From Escherichia coli (GTDB taxonomy: Bacteria > Pseudomonadota > Gammaproteobacteria > Enterobacterales > Enterobacteriaceae), in assembly GCF_016903815.1 (NCBI RefSeq), contig NZ_CP069975.1: a stretch of DNA of 41,445 bases; one strand, 5' to 3'. The notes under the pieces were generated by a model. It saw nothing but the letters and a program-made list of their open reading frames with translations. It was not told where the DNA came from and did not search any database. Position numbers and translations under genes: made by a program. Shown here piece after piece: positions 3,151-11,689 of the stretch; position 1 is the stretch's first letter, and every line of letters starts with the position of its first letter.

Positions 3151-3990
3151 TCACGCATCGCTATCCAACAGCAAATCATCTGCGCGGGTGCGATCAAACG
3201 TAGGCGTTGCTTTCACAATAGTGCCGCCCGGCGTTGCAGTGATCGGGGCGTTAATCGACGTAACTTCAGTAAGCGAAGTTGTATCCGAAGTTTCAAACCA
3301 GCAGAATGCTTTTTCGGTATCAGAAATCTCATTCAAAGTGATCATGTCGGCCTGTTCATTTACAACAACCGACAAATAGAGCGTAAGCCCATCAAACACT
3401 ATATGCAGTGGCAGTAGAGGCTTTACGAACTGATTAAACTTTCTGAGAATTTCTTCTGTAATTGCGGACTGATCTATCGTTCCAGTAATACCCATTGTCC
3501 GGGCCAGGTCGTTTATGGGAATACTGATCATTCCTCTGGAAGTCAGAAACATCTCGCCGAATGTGCCGCCGGTGGTTTCCAGTGTGCTTTCTGGAATCAG
3601 GACCGTGCCATAGGGATGACGTTCAAAGTCCACCGGAGCATATATTGGATCCCATAAAACCGATATACCGTTAAATTCGCGATAAATTGTCTGGTTTATA
3701 GGGCGTTCAGTACCCTTAAAATGGATCTCATCAAACCGCTGTTGTAACAACATCGGAACGGAAGATGAATTCGACGTTCTGATAGTAAAAAACTGGCCAA
3801 GTTCATTTGTCCTAGTCTCCAGATCCTCCTTGCTCATGGAGAAAATAGACTTCCGGTTGGTAATTCGCTCCAACCATGGGTCAACAAAGGTGTCCATCAT
3901 TGACTGAACCAAATCAGCCAATGATTTATAAAGTAATGACTTTTGCTTAGCTGATGTAAGCCGGTTATTAAACCAGGAACGCTGCATCAC
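3151..3990 (-). CDS. Baseplate/tail structural protein (P1 gene 16-like by position)
   Basis: 279-aa ORF; stop overlaps the downstream hairpin; start overlaps the upstream gene stop (ATGA-type coupling at 3987-3990). Confidence 0.6.
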   Translation of the reverse strand: MMQRSWFNNRLTSAKQKSLLYKSLADLVQSMMDTFVDPWLERITNRKSIFSMSKEDLETRTNELGQFFTIRTSNSSSVPMLLQQRFDEIHFKGTERPINQTIYREFNGISVLWDPIYAPVDFERHPYGTVLIPESTLETTGGTFGEMFLTSRGMISIPINDLARTMGITGTIDQSAITEEILRKFNQFVKPLLPLHIVFDGLTLYLSVVVNEQADMITLNEISDTEKAFCWFETSDTTSLTEVTSINAPITATPGGTIVKATPTFDRTRADDLLLDSDA

Positions 3991-5420
3991 TCCTCCTCAT
4001 ACGAAATATTAAAGGTGGAGTTTTCTGTATCCAGATAAACGAAATCGTAAAAGCCGTTGGACTCATTCCACTCGACAAATTCCAGATAAAAGTCGCGGAA
4101 ATAACCCAGCGTTTCGATAAATGCCCAAACGTCTTTTTTCTTGATTAGGATGTACTTGCCGACACGGTTCGGATCAAAGAAAGTTGAGTCACGCCCAAAT
4201 TTTGTTTCCAGTGCCGACTTCAGCTCATCAGTCACGTTCTCAATGGTCAGGCTTGCCGATATCCGCCCAGTGATAGTGATCTTAAAGGGGAGTTTTCTGA
4301 CCTCTTTATACGAGAATTTCTTGTTCAACTCATTCGGCACCTTCTTAAAGGCAGCCAGGATCACTTCTTCAAGCTCTGACTGGCTTTTGTTTGGATGCCA
4401 TCCTGAAATAAATATCTTATTGATATTCCGAACATTATAAGCACCATCTAATTTCTCTTGCTGGCCTTCGCCCCATGCCTTTACCCAGGACAGTCCCGGG
4501 ATGTTACGCACCAAAAAATACGTATAGTCCCCGCCCCATACGACCTGATCATCATAGGCAAGGTAATATTGTGCACGATTACGTGTGATCTCCGTTGTTT
4601 CGGCATCGGTACCTGCGGTTATGGGTGTCGTTGTCTTAACTGAAATCAAATTAGCTAAATTAGCCGCAGAATCGACAGGCGTCAGGTTTTGGCCAGCAAC
4701 CAGGGTTATATCTCCGTTGGTGCACCATACCTTAAGTGTAATGGTCGAGCCTTCTGGCGGTATTTGCCCAATTAGCCCATCACCGAATCGAACCCCCAAC
4801 TGCTCGGATGGCTTATAAAACTCAACGTAGACCTGGCTTTTACTACCGGCTAACCGGAACATAGTGCTGGAAGACCACTGCGTGGTCTTACCATCGGTCG
4901 TCACGAATACTTCCAGCTTATAGCAGACAGCAGTGAGAGCCTTTGATAACACGACTTCCAGAAATTCTTTGGCTGCCGTAACGGTATATGTCACCTCCTG
5001 GATTTCCAACTGTGCCACTTCTACCGTACCGGTGCCGTCAACCAACCTGCATACATCCATAGTCATGTAAGGGTACTGGTCGTCAGATATTAAAGGCATA
5101 TTTTTGGGGATTACCGCTGGGGCATCTTCACTTGTGGCGGTGATCTCAATCATCCCCGATGACGGTGTTGGCTTGGTACCAACGTAACTATTCGTTTCTG
5201 CCGCTGCCAGGATAGAGGAACGCCGCGTCGCGGTCGATATAAAGCCTTCAGCCAGCGCCGCATCGGCATACTGAAAGCACCTGTAGACAATCTGGGTAAT
5301 AAACAATGTCAGCATCGAGACAAATTGAGAGCCGACAAACTTCGACCAGAATGAATCTTTCTCGACAAGCTCTTCAAACTCTGCACGAATACTGTCTTTA
5401 GTCGGTGTTGTTTTACTCAT
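3987..5420 (-). CDS. Baseplate protein (P1 BplA-like by position)
   Basis: 477-aa ORF in tightly packed structural operon; 4-nt overlaps with both neighbours. Confidence 0.6.
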   Translation of the reverse strand: MSKTTPTKDSIRAEFEELVEKDSFWSKFVGSQFVSMLTLFITQIVYRCFQYADAALAEGFISTATRRSSILAAAETNSYVGTKPTPSSGMIEITATSEDAPAVIPKNMPLISDDQYPYMTMDVCRLVDGTGTVEVAQLEIQEVTYTVTAAKEFLEVVLSKALTAVCYKLEVFVTTDGKTTQWSSSTMFRLAGSKSQVYVEFYKPSEQLGVRFGDGLIGQIPPEGSTITLKVWCTNGDITLVAGQNLTPVDSAANLANLISVKTTTPITAGTDAETTEITRNRAQYYLAYDDQVVWGGDYTYFLVRNIPGLSWVKAWGEGQQEKLDGAYNVRNINKIFISGWHPNKSQSELEEVILAAFKKVPNELNKKFSYKEVRKLPFKITITGRISASLTIENVTDELKSALETKFGRDSTFFDPNRVGKYILIKKKDVWAFIETLGYFRDFYLEFVEWNESNGFYDFVYLDTENSTFNISYEEE

Positions 5421-5776
5421 AGCACCACGTCCTGTGTGATAGTTATATCCCTGATACGAATGGATATTTTCAACTTATCAAAAGCATCTCCCTCGGCTAC
5501 TGACAAGCCAGAAATCGGTATGTCAGGTAAATCTACCGTCAGTTTTTGCAACAGCATTGCCTCAACCGCAATTTGAACATGCGACAAGTTGGTCGGTTCG
5601 TGTTTAAACTGCGGTAAAACATTGCCCCATGACGGATCTCCGTATACCTCACCCTGATAAGTGTTTAGCCACTCATATAAACGAGCGCCCCAGGCCTCCT
5701 CCTGGGACTCATACGTTTTTACGCCGGATAACTCCAGCGTCAGTAAAGGATCAATTTCATTATTGTTGGCCATCAA
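5417..5776 (-). CDS. Small morphogenesis protein (P1 PmgA-like by position)
   Basis: 119-aa ORF, translationally coupled on both sides. Confidence 0.5.
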   Translation of the reverse strand: MMANNNEIDPLLTLELSGVKTYESQEEAWGARLYEWLNTYQGEVYGDPSWGNVLPQFKHEPTNLSHVQIAVEAMLLQKLTVDLPDIPISGLSVAEGDAFDKLKISIRIRDITITQDVVL

Positions 5777-8700
5777 TCAACTCTCGCGTAGTCATTCATC
5801 AACGGATCATCAATTGACAGTGGCACCGTGCGCATAACGCCCGGTTGAGGCGTGCTGACCTTTACGACAGTTCCCTGGCCTTTCGCCGAGTCTTTAGTGT
5901 GCTCTTCAATCCTGGCAAGCAATGAGGTCATCTGCGCAAACAGCCGCTTCGTTTCACCATCAAGTGAAACGGTATTATCAGCCAACTGCATTGTCGGCTT
6001 GGCACCGGAGCCGCCAAGGTCACTAATAACCTGTCCGTCTATCTGCATACGACCGGTTGGTTGCTGCAAATCGTTGGCGGCAGTCGTCACCTGGGACGTG
6101 GAGGCTGGTTCAGGCGCATTATTTTTCCGCATCCCCGGCGAGTTGCGGAGTTTATCAAATAGTCCATCAATCCCCATTTGTGCGCCGAGTTGGTCAAAGT
6201 AACTTGAGTTGCTGGCCACCGGACGCGCCTCTTCAACTGGCATCGGAGTATCAACATACACATTGCCAGCTGCTGTTGCGGTCCCCTTCCCTCGTGCACG
6301 TTCTTCGAGCGTTCCCTGAACGACTTCCCGACGCATACCCCGGCCATTCATGAATTTGTTGACCAGATCGTTAACGCCAACAGCATTGCCAATTTTGTCT
6401 ACCAGACCGCCTTTCTCAAACGGGCTATCACCAGGGGTAAACGCCAGGCCAGTAGACTGATCGATAACAGCGTTATCAGGCAGTGGTCCCCTCACTCCAT
6501 ATTGCGCCCCACCCTGTGCTCCTGCTCCAGGTGTATAGATTTCACCACCTAAATAGCGAGCACGATGAGTATTGACCTTGATCGCGTACTCACGGTTTTC
6601 TTTCGATAAGTCACCTGTGCCTTTTTTCCACTTATTGATAGTGCCAAACCCAGCATTATATGCAGTGATGGCCTCGTTTAAGTCTCCATTGGCTTGCTTC
6701 AGATATTTGCTCATGAGAAGAGCCGCAGCTTCTGCCGATTTCACAGGATCAAACGATTCACCTTCAGCTAAGCCAGTCTCTTCACGAGCAATCCCCGTGA
6801 ACTGAAACATCCCCAGAGCACCGGTTTGGGATTTTGCATACGGATTACCACCAGATTCAGTTGCAGCAATCGCGTAAAGAGTGCCTTCTGGAAGACCGTA
6901 TTTATTCTCTAGTTCGGCAAAATACGGAGCCAACTTATCGAGATTTGCCTTACCTTCAGCGCCAAGACTTCCGACTTTTACATCCAAGTTGCCATTGTTG
7001 TAGGTATCCGCAGCTTTCTGAATGTCATTCCTGGTGCCAGTGGTATTAAGCGACGATGATGACGAGCTATTTTGACCAATAGCTTTATCAATTTTCTGCA
7101 ACGCGCTATTGCCCGTTTCTACGGCATTTGCATTGATAATCTGATTAGCAGTTTCTTTAACTGTTTTATTGCTATCTTTCGCCGTATCTAGGGATGCATT
7201 TACAACACGAGTGACAATATTAGCCTTTTTAGGGGTATATTCAGTCTTAGGAGCATTGTCCTCCTGACTTTCTTTAGCTGGTGTTTTTAATTCAGGTGTA
7301 ACCTCTTTCGCATCCGCTTTGTTGACTAGCTTTGATGCAACCCAGGCCACAGGGGTGCTCTGAACAGCGGCATCTGCAACCTCACCTGAAAGCTCTTTTG
7401 CGGCACTCCATAGATTACTGCCAGCTTCTTTAATGTATTTCCCTGGGTTCTTAATGAAATCAATTGCACTATCAATTGCATCACTGAAAACCTGTTTCAG
7501 GTTATCGACAGTAAAGAAGTTTTTGATGGCGTCTAATTTTTCGTTCAGGTTCTTTGTTGTGTCACTGAACCATGCTGAAATAGCATCACCAATCTTTGCA
7601 GTATAATCACTAAATGTCGTGGATATAGTATCACCAAGGTTAGAAATATATGTTTCTAAATTGGTAATCCCACTATCAATGGCCTGGGCAATACTTTCCG
7701 TCGAAAATGATTGCAACATATTGCCGATATCCTCAAATCCAAGTGATTTGAGAACGCCGCCAATGGCACTGCTAATACCAGATACCAGTCCTCCCATATC
7801 GAGAACGTTAGCCAGTGTATAAGCCGCTTTTTGCTGAAAAGATGGATCTTCCCCATCCTTAAGCCCAAAGGTCCGACGTTGTGCTTCTGTATCATTCCAA
7901 CCGGTTACCGCATCATAGATACCTCCAGCCACCGTGCCGACTAGCGGAATTGCGCGTAAAGCCCCCTTTGCAAGAGCCTTAACACCTAGTTTCCCCAATC
8001 CCTTAGTTGCAAGTTTTCCGGCACCGCGAGTAGCCAATTCGCCAGCTTCTTTGGCAGCAGCTTTTTTCCCACCAAAGCCCAATAAGCTTGCAACTTTTTT
8101 TATACCTAAAGCGCCTAGTGCCATCGAGCCAACTTTCTTTAGTACCCCACGGCCAAAAATAAGGGAAGCAATACCACCGGCCCCCTTCCCTAACAGGCTA
8201 AATAGTTTGGACAGCAAGCCGCCCTTCTTTTTCCCGGTGTTTTTGGCTATCTGATCAAGGGCGCTGAGAATCTTGTCATTGCCCTCTTTAATTTCGCTGG
8301 TCTGCTCCTGAAGTTCCTGAACCGTCCGTTTTTGGGTGTTAACCTGAACGACATCGGCACTATTTTGCGATTTACGCCTAAAAAAACCTTTTCTACGGCT
8401 GTTATCGTCATTGCCACGAATCACATCGGCAATAGACTTTCTGGCACCATTAAGCGATCCACCAACTTCTTTTGATATCCCGCCAAGCTCCTTCCCTGCT
8501 GCCCACAATGGACCAGCAACGGCATAACCTAACGCATCGACGGCACGAGTCTCTGAAGGGTTACCTATGCCTTCAGCTACTTTTGACAGTTTTTTTAATA
8601 AACCTGATTCAGCATTTAGACGCTCATCATCCTCTTTGCGCCTGGCCTTTTCAGCACGTTCAGCACGGACATCTTCCGCTGCGGCCTTACTCCCTGACTT

Positions 8701-9468
8701 TCCAATAAAACGACCACGCGCATCGCGTTGGTTTTGGCTTTTTTGCGCACCGCCTTTTTGATCGAACATTTCGCGAGCGTGTTCGGCTGCTTCGGTCCGT
8801 TGTGCCTTTATATCCTCTGATATAGCCTTCCTGCGTCTTTTTTTACCCTTTGGTGTAGTTGATTTGGCCTGCTGTTCCTCTTGAGCAATGCCCTCCTGAA
8901 CTACACGAGAAACGTCCCCTAAATTAAGCCGTTTCATTGCGTCAACAATAGGGTCTACTGATGGCGCATTGGCCACAAAGTCTGGCCGGGAATTTTCGAT
9001 TGTTCGATTTAATGCCGACACACTGCGAGATACTGGGTCAACCGTTGCAACGCGTCCCCCTCTCAAATCACGAGCGAGTTTGACCGTTTCTAACCGCTGT
9101 GCTTTAACATCCTCTGTTATTGCCTCTCTTCGTCTATTTGGGGGATTGTGCGCTGTTGGTGCAACCTGCTGTTCACGGTTAGTGACTTTGTCCTCCCGTA
9201 TACGAGAAACGTCCCCTAAATTAAGCCGTTTCATTGCGTCAACAATAGGGTCTACTGATGGCGCATTGGCCACAAAGTCTGGCCGGGAATTTTCGATTGT
9301 GCGATTTAATGCCGACACACTGCGAGAGACAGGATCAACAGTTGCAACTCGTTCCCCTTTCAAATCTTCAACAGCTTCCCGAATACCTGCAAGCTCTTCC
9401 AGCTCTTTCGCGCTGGCGGTTTCAACTGTCCTTATAACATCGTCAATATTGGCGTTTTTTCTTTCCAT
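5773..9468 (-). CDS. sit: Sit-like structural injection transglycosylase / tape-measure-like protein with soluble lytic transglycosylase domain
   Basis: 1231-aa ORF. SLT-family motifs visible: AATESGGNPYA, GALGMFQF, AYNAG. Gly/Ala/Lys-rich helical repeats typical of tape-measure-like proteins. N-terminal region contains a ~100-aa internal duplication. Confidence 0.85.
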   Translation of the reverse strand: MERKNANIDDVIRTVETASAKELEELAGIREAVEDLKGERVATVDPVSRSVSALNRTIENSRPDFVANAPSVDPIVDAMKRLNLGDVSRIREDKVTNREQQVAPTAHNPPNRRREAITEDVKAQRLETVKLARDLRGGRVATVDPVSRSVSALNRTIENSRPDFVANAPSVDPIVDAMKRLNLGDVSRVVQEGIAQEEQQAKSTTPKGKKRRRKAISEDIKAQRTEAAEHAREMFDQKGGAQKSQNQRDARGRFIGKSGSKAAAEDVRAERAEKARRKEDDERLNAESGLLKKLSKVAEGIGNPSETRAVDALGYAVAGPLWAAGKELGGISKEVGGSLNGARKSIADVIRGNDDNSRRKGFFRRKSQNSADVVQVNTQKRTVQELQEQTSEIKEGNDKILSALDQIAKNTGKKKGGLLSKLFSLLGKGAGGIASLIFGRGVLKKVGSMALGALGIKKVASLLGFGGKKAAAKEAGELATRGAGKLATKGLGKLGVKALAKGALRAIPLVGTVAGGIYDAVTGWNDTEAQRRTFGLKDGEDPSFQQKAAYTLANVLDMGGLVSGISSAIGGVLKSLGFEDIGNMLQSFSTESIAQAIDSGITNLETYISNLGDTISTTFSDYTAKIGDAISAWFSDTTKNLNEKLDAIKNFFTVDNLKQVFSDAIDSAIDFIKNPGKYIKEAGSNLWSAAKELSGEVADAAVQSTPVAWVASKLVNKADAKEVTPELKTPAKESQEDNAPKTEYTPKKANIVTRVVNASLDTAKDSNKTVKETANQIINANAVETGNSALQKIDKAIGQNSSSSSSLNTTGTRNDIQKAADTYNNGNLDVKVGSLGAEGKANLDKLAPYFAELENKYGLPEGTLYAIAATESGGNPYAKSQTGALGMFQFTGIAREETGLAEGESFDPVKSAEAAALLMSKYLKQANGDLNEAITAYNAGFGTINKWKKGTGDLSKENREYAIKVNTHRARYLGGEIYTPGAGAQGGAQYGVRGPLPDNAVIDQSTGLAFTPGDSPFEKGGLVDKIGNAVGVNDLVNKFMNGRGMRREVVQGTLEERARGKGTATAAGNVYVDTPMPVEEARPVASNSSYFDQLGAQMGIDGLFDKLRNSPGMRKNNAPEPASTSQVTTAANDLQQPTGRMQIDGQVISDLGGSGAKPTMQLADNTVSLDGETKRLFAQMTSLLARIEEHTKDSAKGQGTVVKVSTPQPGVMRTVPLSIDDPLMNDYARVD
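8900..9370. repeat. Direct duplication (300-bp period) within the 5' part of sit
   Basis: About 170 bp at 8900-9070 is near-identical to 9200-9370 (cgtttcattgcgtcaacaatagggtctactgatggcgcattggccacaaagtctggccgggaattttcgattgt present in both). Protein repeat RVATVDPVSRSVSALNRTIENSRPDFVANAPSVDPIVDAMKRLNLGDVSR occurs twice. Confidence 0.9.
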
Positions 9469-9549
9469 GATCTTATCGCCTACCGTTTCGGTTTAAGTTT
9501 TTCTTCCAGTTTCTCCAACAGGAAAAACGCATAGGATTCAGTAAGCCTT

Positions 9550-10431
9550 TCAGCGTCCTGAATCGGTATACCCCCATACAAAACCAGGTTGGACACTAAG
9601 GTCTGATAGCTTTTCAATCCCCACCTGTGGAATGAAGTCGGTAGCCCGAAAGGGCACCCACAGACGGGTATACGCACCCTCTGTGGACTCCTTTGTATCC
9701 TGGTTTGGGCATTTGTGCGGCGGGAGACGAAGACGCATTTCGCCTTTATCGATGTAGCACGGTAAACCATGTTCGAGCTTTTCATGAGCCAGCCGGATGT
9801 GTGCCGCCAGCTTCATAAATTCAGTATCAATGGCCATCCGTTTGATCGTTTCATAACGACGCTCAGCCTGCTCTTCACGAGTACCGCTAACATCGTTATA
9901 AAGTTCACACTGATAAGCGAATTCCCAAAAACGCAAATCAACGATCGCTTCTTTGAATTCCGCGTCGTCTTCAGGTGGCAATGCTGCTCGGCGCATCTCC
10001 AGCATTTCCATTGCCCAACCATCAAGCGGCACGATACGCCATTGATAAGGCACGCCCTCTACAGACACCTCAATATCGTCAATGAACGGTTCCACTTCCA
10101 GGACCTGGATATCTTCAGCCAGAGCATTCATATCGCAATCGTAATAATGCTCTTTACCGCAATGTTTACAGGTGTAGGTAAATGTCTCGATCGGTGTTTC
10201 GCGGGAGCCAGTAAATATCCACCATAACGCGGTAATCCGGTCCTGTGCCGTCCATTTCAGTGGATCATGTTTCGCAGCTTCAGCCAGCAAGGCTTTTAAA
10301 TACGCTGTTGTCTGCTGTTCTTGTTCCTCCGGTGTTATCGAGTTGAAACGCATCGCATCAGCAATATTTGGCTGACGGAACTGGATTAATTCAGTTGGCC
10401 GCGATGGTAGCGGGAAAAGGGGTAAAAGCAT
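9550..10431 (-). CDS. Structural/morphogenesis protein (P1 PmgB-like by position); Cys cluster CKHCGKEHYYDCD
   Basis: 293-aa ORF between sit and the tube-like gene; possible zinc-binding cysteines. Confidence 0.55.
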   Translation of the reverse strand: MLLPLFPLPSRPTELIQFRQPNIADAMRFNSITPEEQEQQTTAYLKALLAEAAKHDPLKWTAQDRITALWWIFTGSRETPIETFTYTCKHCGKEHYYDCDMNALAEDIQVLEVEPFIDDIEVSVEGVPYQWRIVPLDGWAMEMLEMRRAALPPEDDAEFKEAIVDLRFWEFAYQCELYNDVSGTREEQAERRYETIKRMAIDTEFMKLAAHIRLAHEKLEHGLPCYIDKGEMRLRLPPHKCPNQDTKESTEGAYTRLWVPFRATDFIPQVGIEKLSDLSVQPGFVWGYTDSGR

Positions 10432-10445
10432 CCTTGCTCCTTAAT

Positions 10446-11057
10446 TTAAAGCGAAAAACTAAAGCCCAGAAGGGAAGCTAAAGAACTTGAGGATTGGTTA
10501 AACGTGCTGTGCAACGCGAAGGTCATTGGGAATGACTTAAATTCCGTAACCTGATCCCGCGCATAGGTGACATCGCCGGTAGTGACCGGGAATACCGTCA
10601 TCTCATTTTCCAGTTTGGTTAAACCGGAGGACAGCAACCGATAAATACGCACATTGAGCAAATATTTAGACGGTATATTCCCGGTACCGTCCGGATTGAT
10701 CACCCGACTTTTTGCCGTCTTAAACCAGTCCAAAACGAGGCCATCAACGGTATCCCTGACCATCATTGTTATCTGCCCAGGCGAACGCTCCGTTGGCTGA
10801 AGGATATTCCCTCCGCCGATTTTAATCGTTTCATATTCGATGCTGTAATCGTGGTAGGTAATGTCTTTAGCAAAGAAGTCTGCCCCCTCCAGACCATCAA
10901 CTTCGACAGAGAACTGCCATCCTTGCGCGAACAGCATTTTGTTCATGATGATTGACGTCAGCTTACCAACTTCCCGCTCACCAACGCCGGAGCCAAATAA
11001 TGTCGTCGTTAATGCCGAAGATACATAAGACTTTACTGAAGCAACATTAAGCCCCAT
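10446..11057 (-). CDS. Tail tube-region structural protein (P1 Tub-like by position)
   Basis: 203-aa ORF; synteny only. Confidence 0.5.
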   Translation of the reverse strand: MGLNVASVKSYVSSALTTTLFGSGVGEREVGKLTSIIMNKMLFAQGWQFSVEVDGLEGADFFAKDITYHDYSIEYETIKIGGGNILQPTERSPGQITMMVRDTVDGLVLDWFKTAKSRVINPDGTGNIPSKYLLNVRIYRLLSSGLTKLENEMTVFPVTTGDVTYARDQVTEFKSFPMTFALHSTFNQSSSSLASLLGFSFSL

Positions 11058-11067
11058 ATCAGCCCCC

Positions 11068-11689
<622 letters not shown>

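Follow-up and report, generated by a model that had tools for sequence, protein, structure and literature searches.

How does a tail gene come to carry one of its segments twice, and would the longer protein make a longer tail? We asked this of sit, the gene for the tape measure (or structural injection transglycosylase) in a 41,445-nt stretch of Escherichia coli DNA (assembly GCF_016903815.1, contig NZ_CP069975.1), hereafter called the window, whose positions serve as coordinates throughout. The DNA around sit is 95–99.7% identical to that of P1-like phages (genus Punavirus) and phage-plasmids. Our reading, held with moderate confidence, is that sit contains an in-frame, copy-number-variable module of 297 bp near the N-terminus of the protein, that this module is old and has been shaped by recombination, and that extra units would lengthen the tail ruler. 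The features that this reading concerns are:

5773–9468, minus strand: sit, tape measure / structural injection transglycosylase, 1231 aa (open reading frame [ORF] and translation, DNA identity, gene order, match to phrog_2533)
9367–9468, minus strand: unique N-terminal segment, aa 1–34 (MERKNANIDDVIRTVETASAKELEELAGIREAVE), predicted helix, conserved in homologues
9070–9366, minus strand: repeat unit 1, aa 35–133, made of a core (9199–9366) and tailA (9070–9198); missing from P1
8773–9069, minus strand: repeat unit 2, aa 134–232, made of a core (8902–9069) and tailB (8773–8901), delimited by sequence comparison
9202–9300, minus strand: perfect 99-nt tract in unit 1, identical to 8905–9003 and read as a gene-conversion tract
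8905–9003, minus strand: partner of that tract in unit 2, identical to 9202–9300, encoding TIENSRPDFVANAPSVDPIVDAMKRLNLGDVSR including the motif AMKxLNLG

A tandem 99-residue unit in Sit

A preliminary description of this locus had reported a segment of about 100 residues duplicated in tandem, with the first ~170 bp of each copy nearly identical and the remainder diverged, and both points were confirmed here. A repeat search recovered a direct repeat of 168 nt (8902–9069 and 9199–9366) with 95% identity and a spacing of 297 bp; aligned against each other by BLAST, the two copies gave E=5e-73, so that the repeat is not due to chance. In a sliding comparison at an offset of 297, homology at 60–75% identity extended further, to ~8760/9057. 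The translation comprises two in-frame units of exactly 99 codons each, D35–R133 (9366 to 9070) and D134–R232 (9069 to 8773), each consisting of the 168-nt core followed by a diverged tail of 129 nt (tailA in unit 1, tailB in unit 2). The junctions (VE/DLKG..., AR/DLRG... and AR/EMFDQ, with slashes at the unit boundaries) bear the mark of a clean tandem duplication. At 297 bp (99 codons), the period falls short of the 300 bp first given, and the interval first assigned to the duplication, 8900–9370, takes in both cores and the tail of unit 1 but omits the tail of unit 2. As had also been proposed, the duplication lengthens the protein, which has 1231 aa with the extra unit and 1132 aa without it (P1 Sit, 1140 aa).

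The near-identity of the cores is unevenly distributed. Codons 23–55 of the unit show zero differences between units 1 and 2 over all 99 nt, and ~66 nt on the gene-5' side of this tract hold 6 synonymous and 2 non-synonymous differences. The AMKxLNLG motif and its neighbouring residues are invariant even where homologues share only 45% identity overall. Several two-unit alleles (e.g., IMG/VR loci L011 and L017) read AIKRLNLG instead of AMKRLNLG in unit 1, with unit 2 unchanged, and this change from M to I suggests, by sequence, relaxed constraint on the extra copy and redundancy. When compared with P1 (L001), tailA found no full-length match and one partial match (~75%), located at tailB.

Profile searches of Pfam, PHROGs, NCBIfam and PDB left the repeat region unannotated beyond the Sit family itself. 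A function of the repeat at the DNA level was considered and rejected, with no promoter-like sites, terminator-like sites at chance frequency and no Rfam match at E<=0.1. Nor does the locus resemble a contingency or phase-variable locus: its unit of 297 nt is a multiple of 3, the frame is kept at all copy numbers, and Tandem Repeats Finder, run over 5000–10500, found no homopolymer or short-unit tracts for slippage and only one 9-nt repeat present twice.

Copy number among relatives and the age of the units

Having defined the units, we compared copy number among relatives, writing alleles as Nterm-(core-tailA)n-core-tailB-rest, where n is the number of extra units and the presence of tailA marks two or more units. 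We used BLAST to assign the architecture of 69 sit loci, drawn from phage records, PLSDB plasmids and 59 IMG/VR contigs. All followed this order up to the downstream sequence; 45 loci have n=0, 18 have n=1 and 3 have n=2, and in none of the 69 does tailA occur without a core after it. One unit (n=0) is present in P1, where a single core is followed by tailB and there is no copy of tailA, as well as in P7, RCS47, SJ46 and most others; the window, phi456 and 673R5 have two (core-tailA-core-tailB); 813R1 and a few plasmids have three (core-tailA-core-tailA-core-tailB). Three-unit counts are lower bounds, as the middle unit is without unique sequence and can collapse in assembly.

Larger collections gave the same picture. 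Among PLSDB plasmids, tailB was detected in 453 records and tailA in 136 (144 places), and among complete E. coli genomes tailB was detected in 446 and tailA in 197 (206 places, at most two per genome); a tblastn search of PLSDB agreed (483 records, 632 places). Two or more units, as marked by tailA, are therefore carried by ~26–44% of P1-like elements, depending on the collection. The alignment with homologues that the preliminary description had called for thus shows one unit in P1, P7, RCS47, SJ46 and two distant homologues and three in a few, and the alternative it had named, namely the same two copies fixed in all homologues, does not describe these elements. The presence or absence of tailA offers a simple typing marker for P1-like lineages.

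Intact ORFs exist at each extended length: the two-unit forms of the window and phi456 both encode 1231 aa, and the three-unit form of CP130449 encodes 1340 aa. Phage phi456 yields plaques and myovirus particles (PMC10967188), and since it forms plaques, the two-unit Sit protein works.

An artefact, i.e., a segment falsely duplicated in one assembly, would be conceivable for a repeat of such size, at which assemblies from short reads do break or collapse. Of the database proteins that match the N-terminus of Sit (P0001–P0016), most are tagged 'partial' and cover only about half of the N-terminal 287-aa query. This fits short-read assemblies that end, or merge the copies, at the 297-bp repeat, a likely cause of such damaged sit records. 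Two GenBank phage records that hold the repeat, 813R1 (L002, ON470617.2) and 673R5 (L003, ON470615.2), also have a frameshifted sit, split into several coding sequences by 1-nt indels, some of them inside the repeat; these frameshifts are probably sequencing errors and not pseudogenes. However, the two-unit structure recurs with the same distinctive tailA in the complete E. coli genomes and PLSDB plasmids counted above, in 15 IMG/VR contigs and in phi456 (PMC10967188); there are many differences between the two units, and the reading frame is unbroken. The occurrence of tailA in hundreds of independent complete assemblies argues that the repeat is not an assembly artefact, an explanation to which we give next to no credence. 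Partial and broken records do make copy-number counts from draft genomes unreliable; the counts above rest on DNA and tblastn searches and on the IMG/VR loci, and the protein search gave only fragmentary Sit.

A HMMER search of 1.84 billion cluster representatives returned 15 hits, among them two informative distant homologues, both with one unit. In Cronobacter phage JK004 and in a 1081-aa protein from this search (P0023), each ~45% identical to window Sit, the one unit present corresponds to unit 2 in the alignment, which indicates that one unit is ancestral at that depth. Judged by these alignments, unit 2 is the orthologue of the single unit in P1 and the outgroups. None of the 15 hits has tailA in a single-unit context, although clustering at 50% could hide such an allele.

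Divergence between the units (Nei-Gojobori estimates of synonymous, dS, and non-synonymous, dN, divergence) gave two different ages. Within one allele, the cores differ by a dS of 0.15–0.35 and a dN of 0.017–0.034, i.e., both cores are under strong purifying selection, whereas the tails differ by a dS of 0.87–1.1 and a dN of 0.41–0.48, with dN/dS near 1 in the first half of the tail. For comparison, orthologous dS among sampled P1-like alleles has a median of 0.155 (up to 0.38) for cores and 0.14 (at most 0.30) for tailB, so that synonymous divergence between tailA and tailB is 3–7 times any orthologous divergence among these alleles. By their tails, the units would be several times older than the sampled radiation, and by their cores they look no older than ordinary alleles. 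The idea of a recent event in the window genome is not tenable, as the same diverged tailA is common to all two-unit alleles. A recent duplication followed by fast, selected divergence of the tail was likewise rejected, because the synonymous divergence of the tail itself is ~0.9–1.1.

The discordance between core and tail ages is explained by gene conversion and unequal crossover, as seen in a table of informative single-nucleotide polymorphisms (SNPs). In typical two-unit alleles, unit 1 bears the signature TTCC at positions 33/36/39/66 and ATTA at 81–97, and unit 2 bears CAAA and CGAG at the corresponding positions. Only in the window and 673R5 does the middle of unit 1 carry the unit-2 signature instead of ATTA, and the unit-1 core of most two-unit alleles is ~91% identical to the unit-2 core of the window; the near-identity of the window cores is thus largely owed to gene conversion, part of it a tract specific to this lineage. 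In L019, L024, L069 and pEC12-3, conversion has instead affected the 5' part of unit 1. SNP patches shared between units contradict a division into two clean clades of unit-1 and unit-2 cores. Three-unit alleles read (A5'-tailA)(B5'-tailA)(B5'-tailB), which by its sequence is what two two-unit alleles should yield when they cross over unequally within their cores, and the single-unit allele of pCombat11I9-3, in which the unit-1-specific ATTA signature is joined to tailB, is by the same kind of evidence the reciprocal contraction from two units to one. Expansion (two to three units) and contraction (two to one) are therefore both directly documented, to the extent that SNP patterns record them.

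These patterns suggest the following history. The module would have arisen once, by a clean tandem duplication of residues D35–R133 that would long predate the divergence of the sampled P1-like elements. The cores would then have stayed similar through purifying selection acting on the peptide and through patchy gene conversion, while the tail of the internal copy, charged and rich in proline, diverged. Unequal homologous recombination, with the ~170-bp cores as substrates, would add or remove units as a whole. That tandem segments evolve in concert is textbook knowledge, and sit shares the hallmarks of this process, i.e., patchy SNP sharing, a perfect tract within otherwise diverged units, and three-unit and one-unit products. 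As an example of the process within a structural gene of a phage, the locus is ordinary, small and clean.

Possible effects of extra units on the tail

What might an additional unit do? The preliminary description had suggested that, if Sit acts as a length ruler, copy number could alter the tail. As a prediction this is reasonable, since Sit is regarded as the P1 tape measure in two structural studies, in whose cryo-electron microscopy maps it is not resolved (PMC9024508; PMC12810830). The P1 tail is 2450 Å long and has 53 tube/sheath rings with a rise of 40 Å each (PMC10304247), and helicity has been reported for P1 Sit over its N-terminal two-thirds (PMC9024508). For TP901-1 and lambda, the length of the tail scales with that of the tape measure, at ~0.145–0.15 nm per residue, and the TP901-1 tail became longer, with the titre kept, through a duplication in the N-terminal region of its tape measure (PMC5099701). 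By this rule 99 residues add ~15 nm, and by P1's own ratio (~2100 Å for 1140 aa) they add ~18 nm. Mechanistically, the C-terminal part of Sit would be anchored at the baseplate and tube polymerisation is thought to stop at the N-terminal end, in which case each extra unit would lengthen the ruler by 15–18 nm, or ~4–5 rings of 40 Å on top of the 53 of P1. It is possible, and we put it forward tentatively, that recombination thereby maintains a natural tail-length polymorphism with ~53, 57–58 and 61–62 rings for n=0, 1 and 2, respectively. Tail length could in turn be under diversifying selection, e.g., for different thicknesses of capsule or O-antigen. Purifying selection on the cores and the invariant motif indicate in any case that the module is not junk.

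Several points weigh against this reading. The literature searched gave no tail lengths for two- or three-unit phages. An AlphaFold2 model of aa 1–417, built from a 6-sequence alignment, is of low confidence (mean predicted local distance difference test [pLDDT] score 46.5, below 50 across both units), and in it each unit forms three short helices in mostly coil, with no continuous ruler helix. The module starts 34 residues from the N-terminus and lies within the first ~130, a region perhaps buried in the neck in other phages (PMC5099701). As a pure alpha-helix, P1 Sit with its 1140 aa would span ~171 nm, versus a trunk of ~210 nm, so that a rule of 1.5 Å per residue is not exact for P1. As to history, n=0 alleles within the P1 clade may be either ancestral or secondary losses, and tailA may have come by introgression from an unsampled lineage and not have arisen in place.

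Some of these observations would suit a neutral expansion of a linker, in which a flexible N-terminal segment outside the measuring stretch drifts in copy number while tail length and infectivity stay unchanged, with the module accommodated in the lumen of the neck or terminator, or compressible, for example. Such an expansion would agree with the mostly coiled, low-scoring structure across both units and with their location, given that ~127 terminal residues were without effect on tail length in TP901-1 (PMC5099701). The natural persistence of all three copy numbers with intact ORFs, the dN/dS near 1 in the first half of the unit tail, and the M to I change in the unit-1 copy of AMKxLNLG in several alleles, which suggests redundancy, point the same way. 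Nevertheless, a linker free to drift is hard to reconcile with the strong purifying selection on both cores; the classical ruler model counts every residue from the C-terminal anchor to the N-terminal end; and P1 needs more than 1.5 Å per residue (PMC10304247), such that extended or coiled segments probably count as well. We regard neutral expansion as rather unlikely. If the module were indeed without effect on tail length, its variation would be an ordinary neutral length polymorphism.

The conservation of the core allows another explanation, in which the core with its AMKxLNLG motif docks a partner and extra copies alter assembly, ejection or sensitivity to host defence, but not length. Candidate partners would be PmgB (a putative chaperone), the terminator gp24, the tube protein BplB or a component of the host envelope. 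The motif and its neighbours are invariant in homologues of 45% identity, conservation is much higher in the core than in the tail, and pmgB, whose product has been proposed to be a tape-measure chaperone, lies directly upstream (PMC9024508). On the other side, these partners are candidates only, with no Pfam, PDB or NCBIfam match in the region, the structure model is too poor (pLDDT 46.5) to address binding, and the unit-1 motif tolerates M to I in some alleles. A change in valency of this kind appears improbable to us.

Internal duplications and losses in tape-measure genes, and their use as rulers of natural or engineered length, are well established (PMC3271669, PMC5099701), and the variation of sit is a further case; we found no description of it in the literature, although the alleles are in public databases. 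Like sit, the genes for lambda gpH, the TP901-1 tape measure and mycobacteriophage tape measures undergo in-frame duplication or loss in the ruler gene, and repeats have been proposed to facilitate this, with tail length scaling with tape-measure length (PMC5099701, PMC3271669). Those genes, however, encode many short, helical units of 11 or 18 aa, whereas sit has a 99-aa module that is present one to three times (twice in the window, where no series of many 11- or 18-aa copies is found), lies beside the N-terminus and is predicted to be mostly coil, and its host is a phage-plasmid with a contractile tail.

Should the module contribute to the ruler, P1-like phage-plasmids, a clinically widespread group that is important for carrying resistance genes and for generalized transduction, would fall into two or three discrete classes of tail length, and the two-unit form would account for about a quarter to nearly half of the elements, depending on the collection. 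They would then provide a natural allelic series, the first for the tape measure of a contractile-tailed phage, with which to test how the ruler fixes the length of an 'ultra-long' myophage tail that a fully helical Sit would be too short to span.

Identity of sit, its neighbours and other repeats

The identity of the gene is supported by its surroundings and domains, for which the window features are:

6595–6924, minus strand: SLT lytic transglycosylase domain, Sit aa 849–958 (Pfam PF01464, E=2.8e-27)
9550–10431, minus strand: pmgB homologue, 293 aa, upstream of sit (position and length as P1 pmgB)
11068–11634, 10446–11057, 9550–10431, 5773–9468, 5417–5776 and 3987–5420: ORFs of pmgC, tub, pmgB, sit, pmgA and bplA, in this order (minus strand for sit and pmgB)
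371–1870 (array to ~2026), minus strand: five 300-nt units in the tail-fibre gene S, ORF 128–2713 (repeat search)

Window sit shares 95–99.7% DNA identity with sit of P1-like phages, its product matches phrog_2533 over the full length (profile positions 34–1130 of 1130), the SLT domain lies in the C-terminal third as in the P1 Sit orthologue group, and the order pmgC-tub-pmgB-sit-pmgA-bplA is that of P1, with window ORFs and the P1 annotation agreeing in lengths and order. On this sequence evidence, the ORF at 5773–9468 is the orthologue of P1 Sit (YP_006507.1, 1140 aa). The two have the same neighbours and ~95% DNA identity outside the insertion, and they share the N-terminal helix, the SLT domain and a Gly-rich hydrophobic region; they differ in that P1 Sit has a single unit, whereas window Sit has an extra 99-aa core-tailA unit after aa 34 and another variant of the Gly-rich region. 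Residues 1–34 are strongly conserved even in homologues only 45% identical overall, and a helix is predicted, with low confidence (AlphaFold2), at residues 6–43. The Gly-rich hydrophobic stretch is visible in the translation at aa ~415–520, and the position of the gene fits the tape-measure class, for which a long and mainly alpha-helical protein is typical; the low-confidence AlphaFold2 model of aa 1–417, however, is helical only in part.

The preliminary description had also equated the period of the sit repeat with that of the repeats in the tail-fibre gene S. At 297 versus 300 nt and with unrelated sequences, this near-coincidence has no biological meaning. The S array comprises five tandem 300-nt units, 97–98% identical, plus a partial sixth, and encodes 100-aa tail-fibre repeats (..TQKGIVQLSSATNSTSE..LAATPKAVKAAYDLA..). 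P1 S matches the 300-nt unit only partially (~75% identity) and has annotated repeated elements a0/a1/b1/b2, in contrast to the five-unit array of the window, which is likely, by sequence, a second copy-number-variable repeat in a tail gene. The two arrays are alike in being in-frame tandem repeats in tail genes of one genome. A common origin was nevertheless rejected, as only 9–10-nt chance matches and no significant protein similarity were found, and sequence comparison gave no evidence of a shared origin or mechanism beyond homologous recombination.

Other observations concern sit itself. An antisense ORF of 175 aa with a TTG start overlies the repeat on the plus strand (8969–9496) and is most likely a by-product of the sit coding strand, without support of its own. 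The Gly-rich hydrophobic region (aa ~437–520, window ~7909–8160, minus strand) occurs as two clearly different variants among alleles, one in the window and phi456 and the other in P1, pSA20030575.2 and pCombat11I9-3, with a net difference of ~8 aa, which points to mosaicism of sit beyond the 297-bp repeat. The 9-nt tandem repeat (TTCAGCACG, twice; 8650–8667, minus strand) encodes RAERAE at Sit aa ~268–273, and the pAPEC201602 allele (L008) has three copies (RAERAERAE). The helix around RAERAE, AAAEDVRAERAEKARR, loosely resembles the ends of the repeat tails (A-x-x-ED-V/I-K/R-A-Q/E-R). The 9-nt repeat may be a second, minor length polymorphism as well as what is left of an older duplication.

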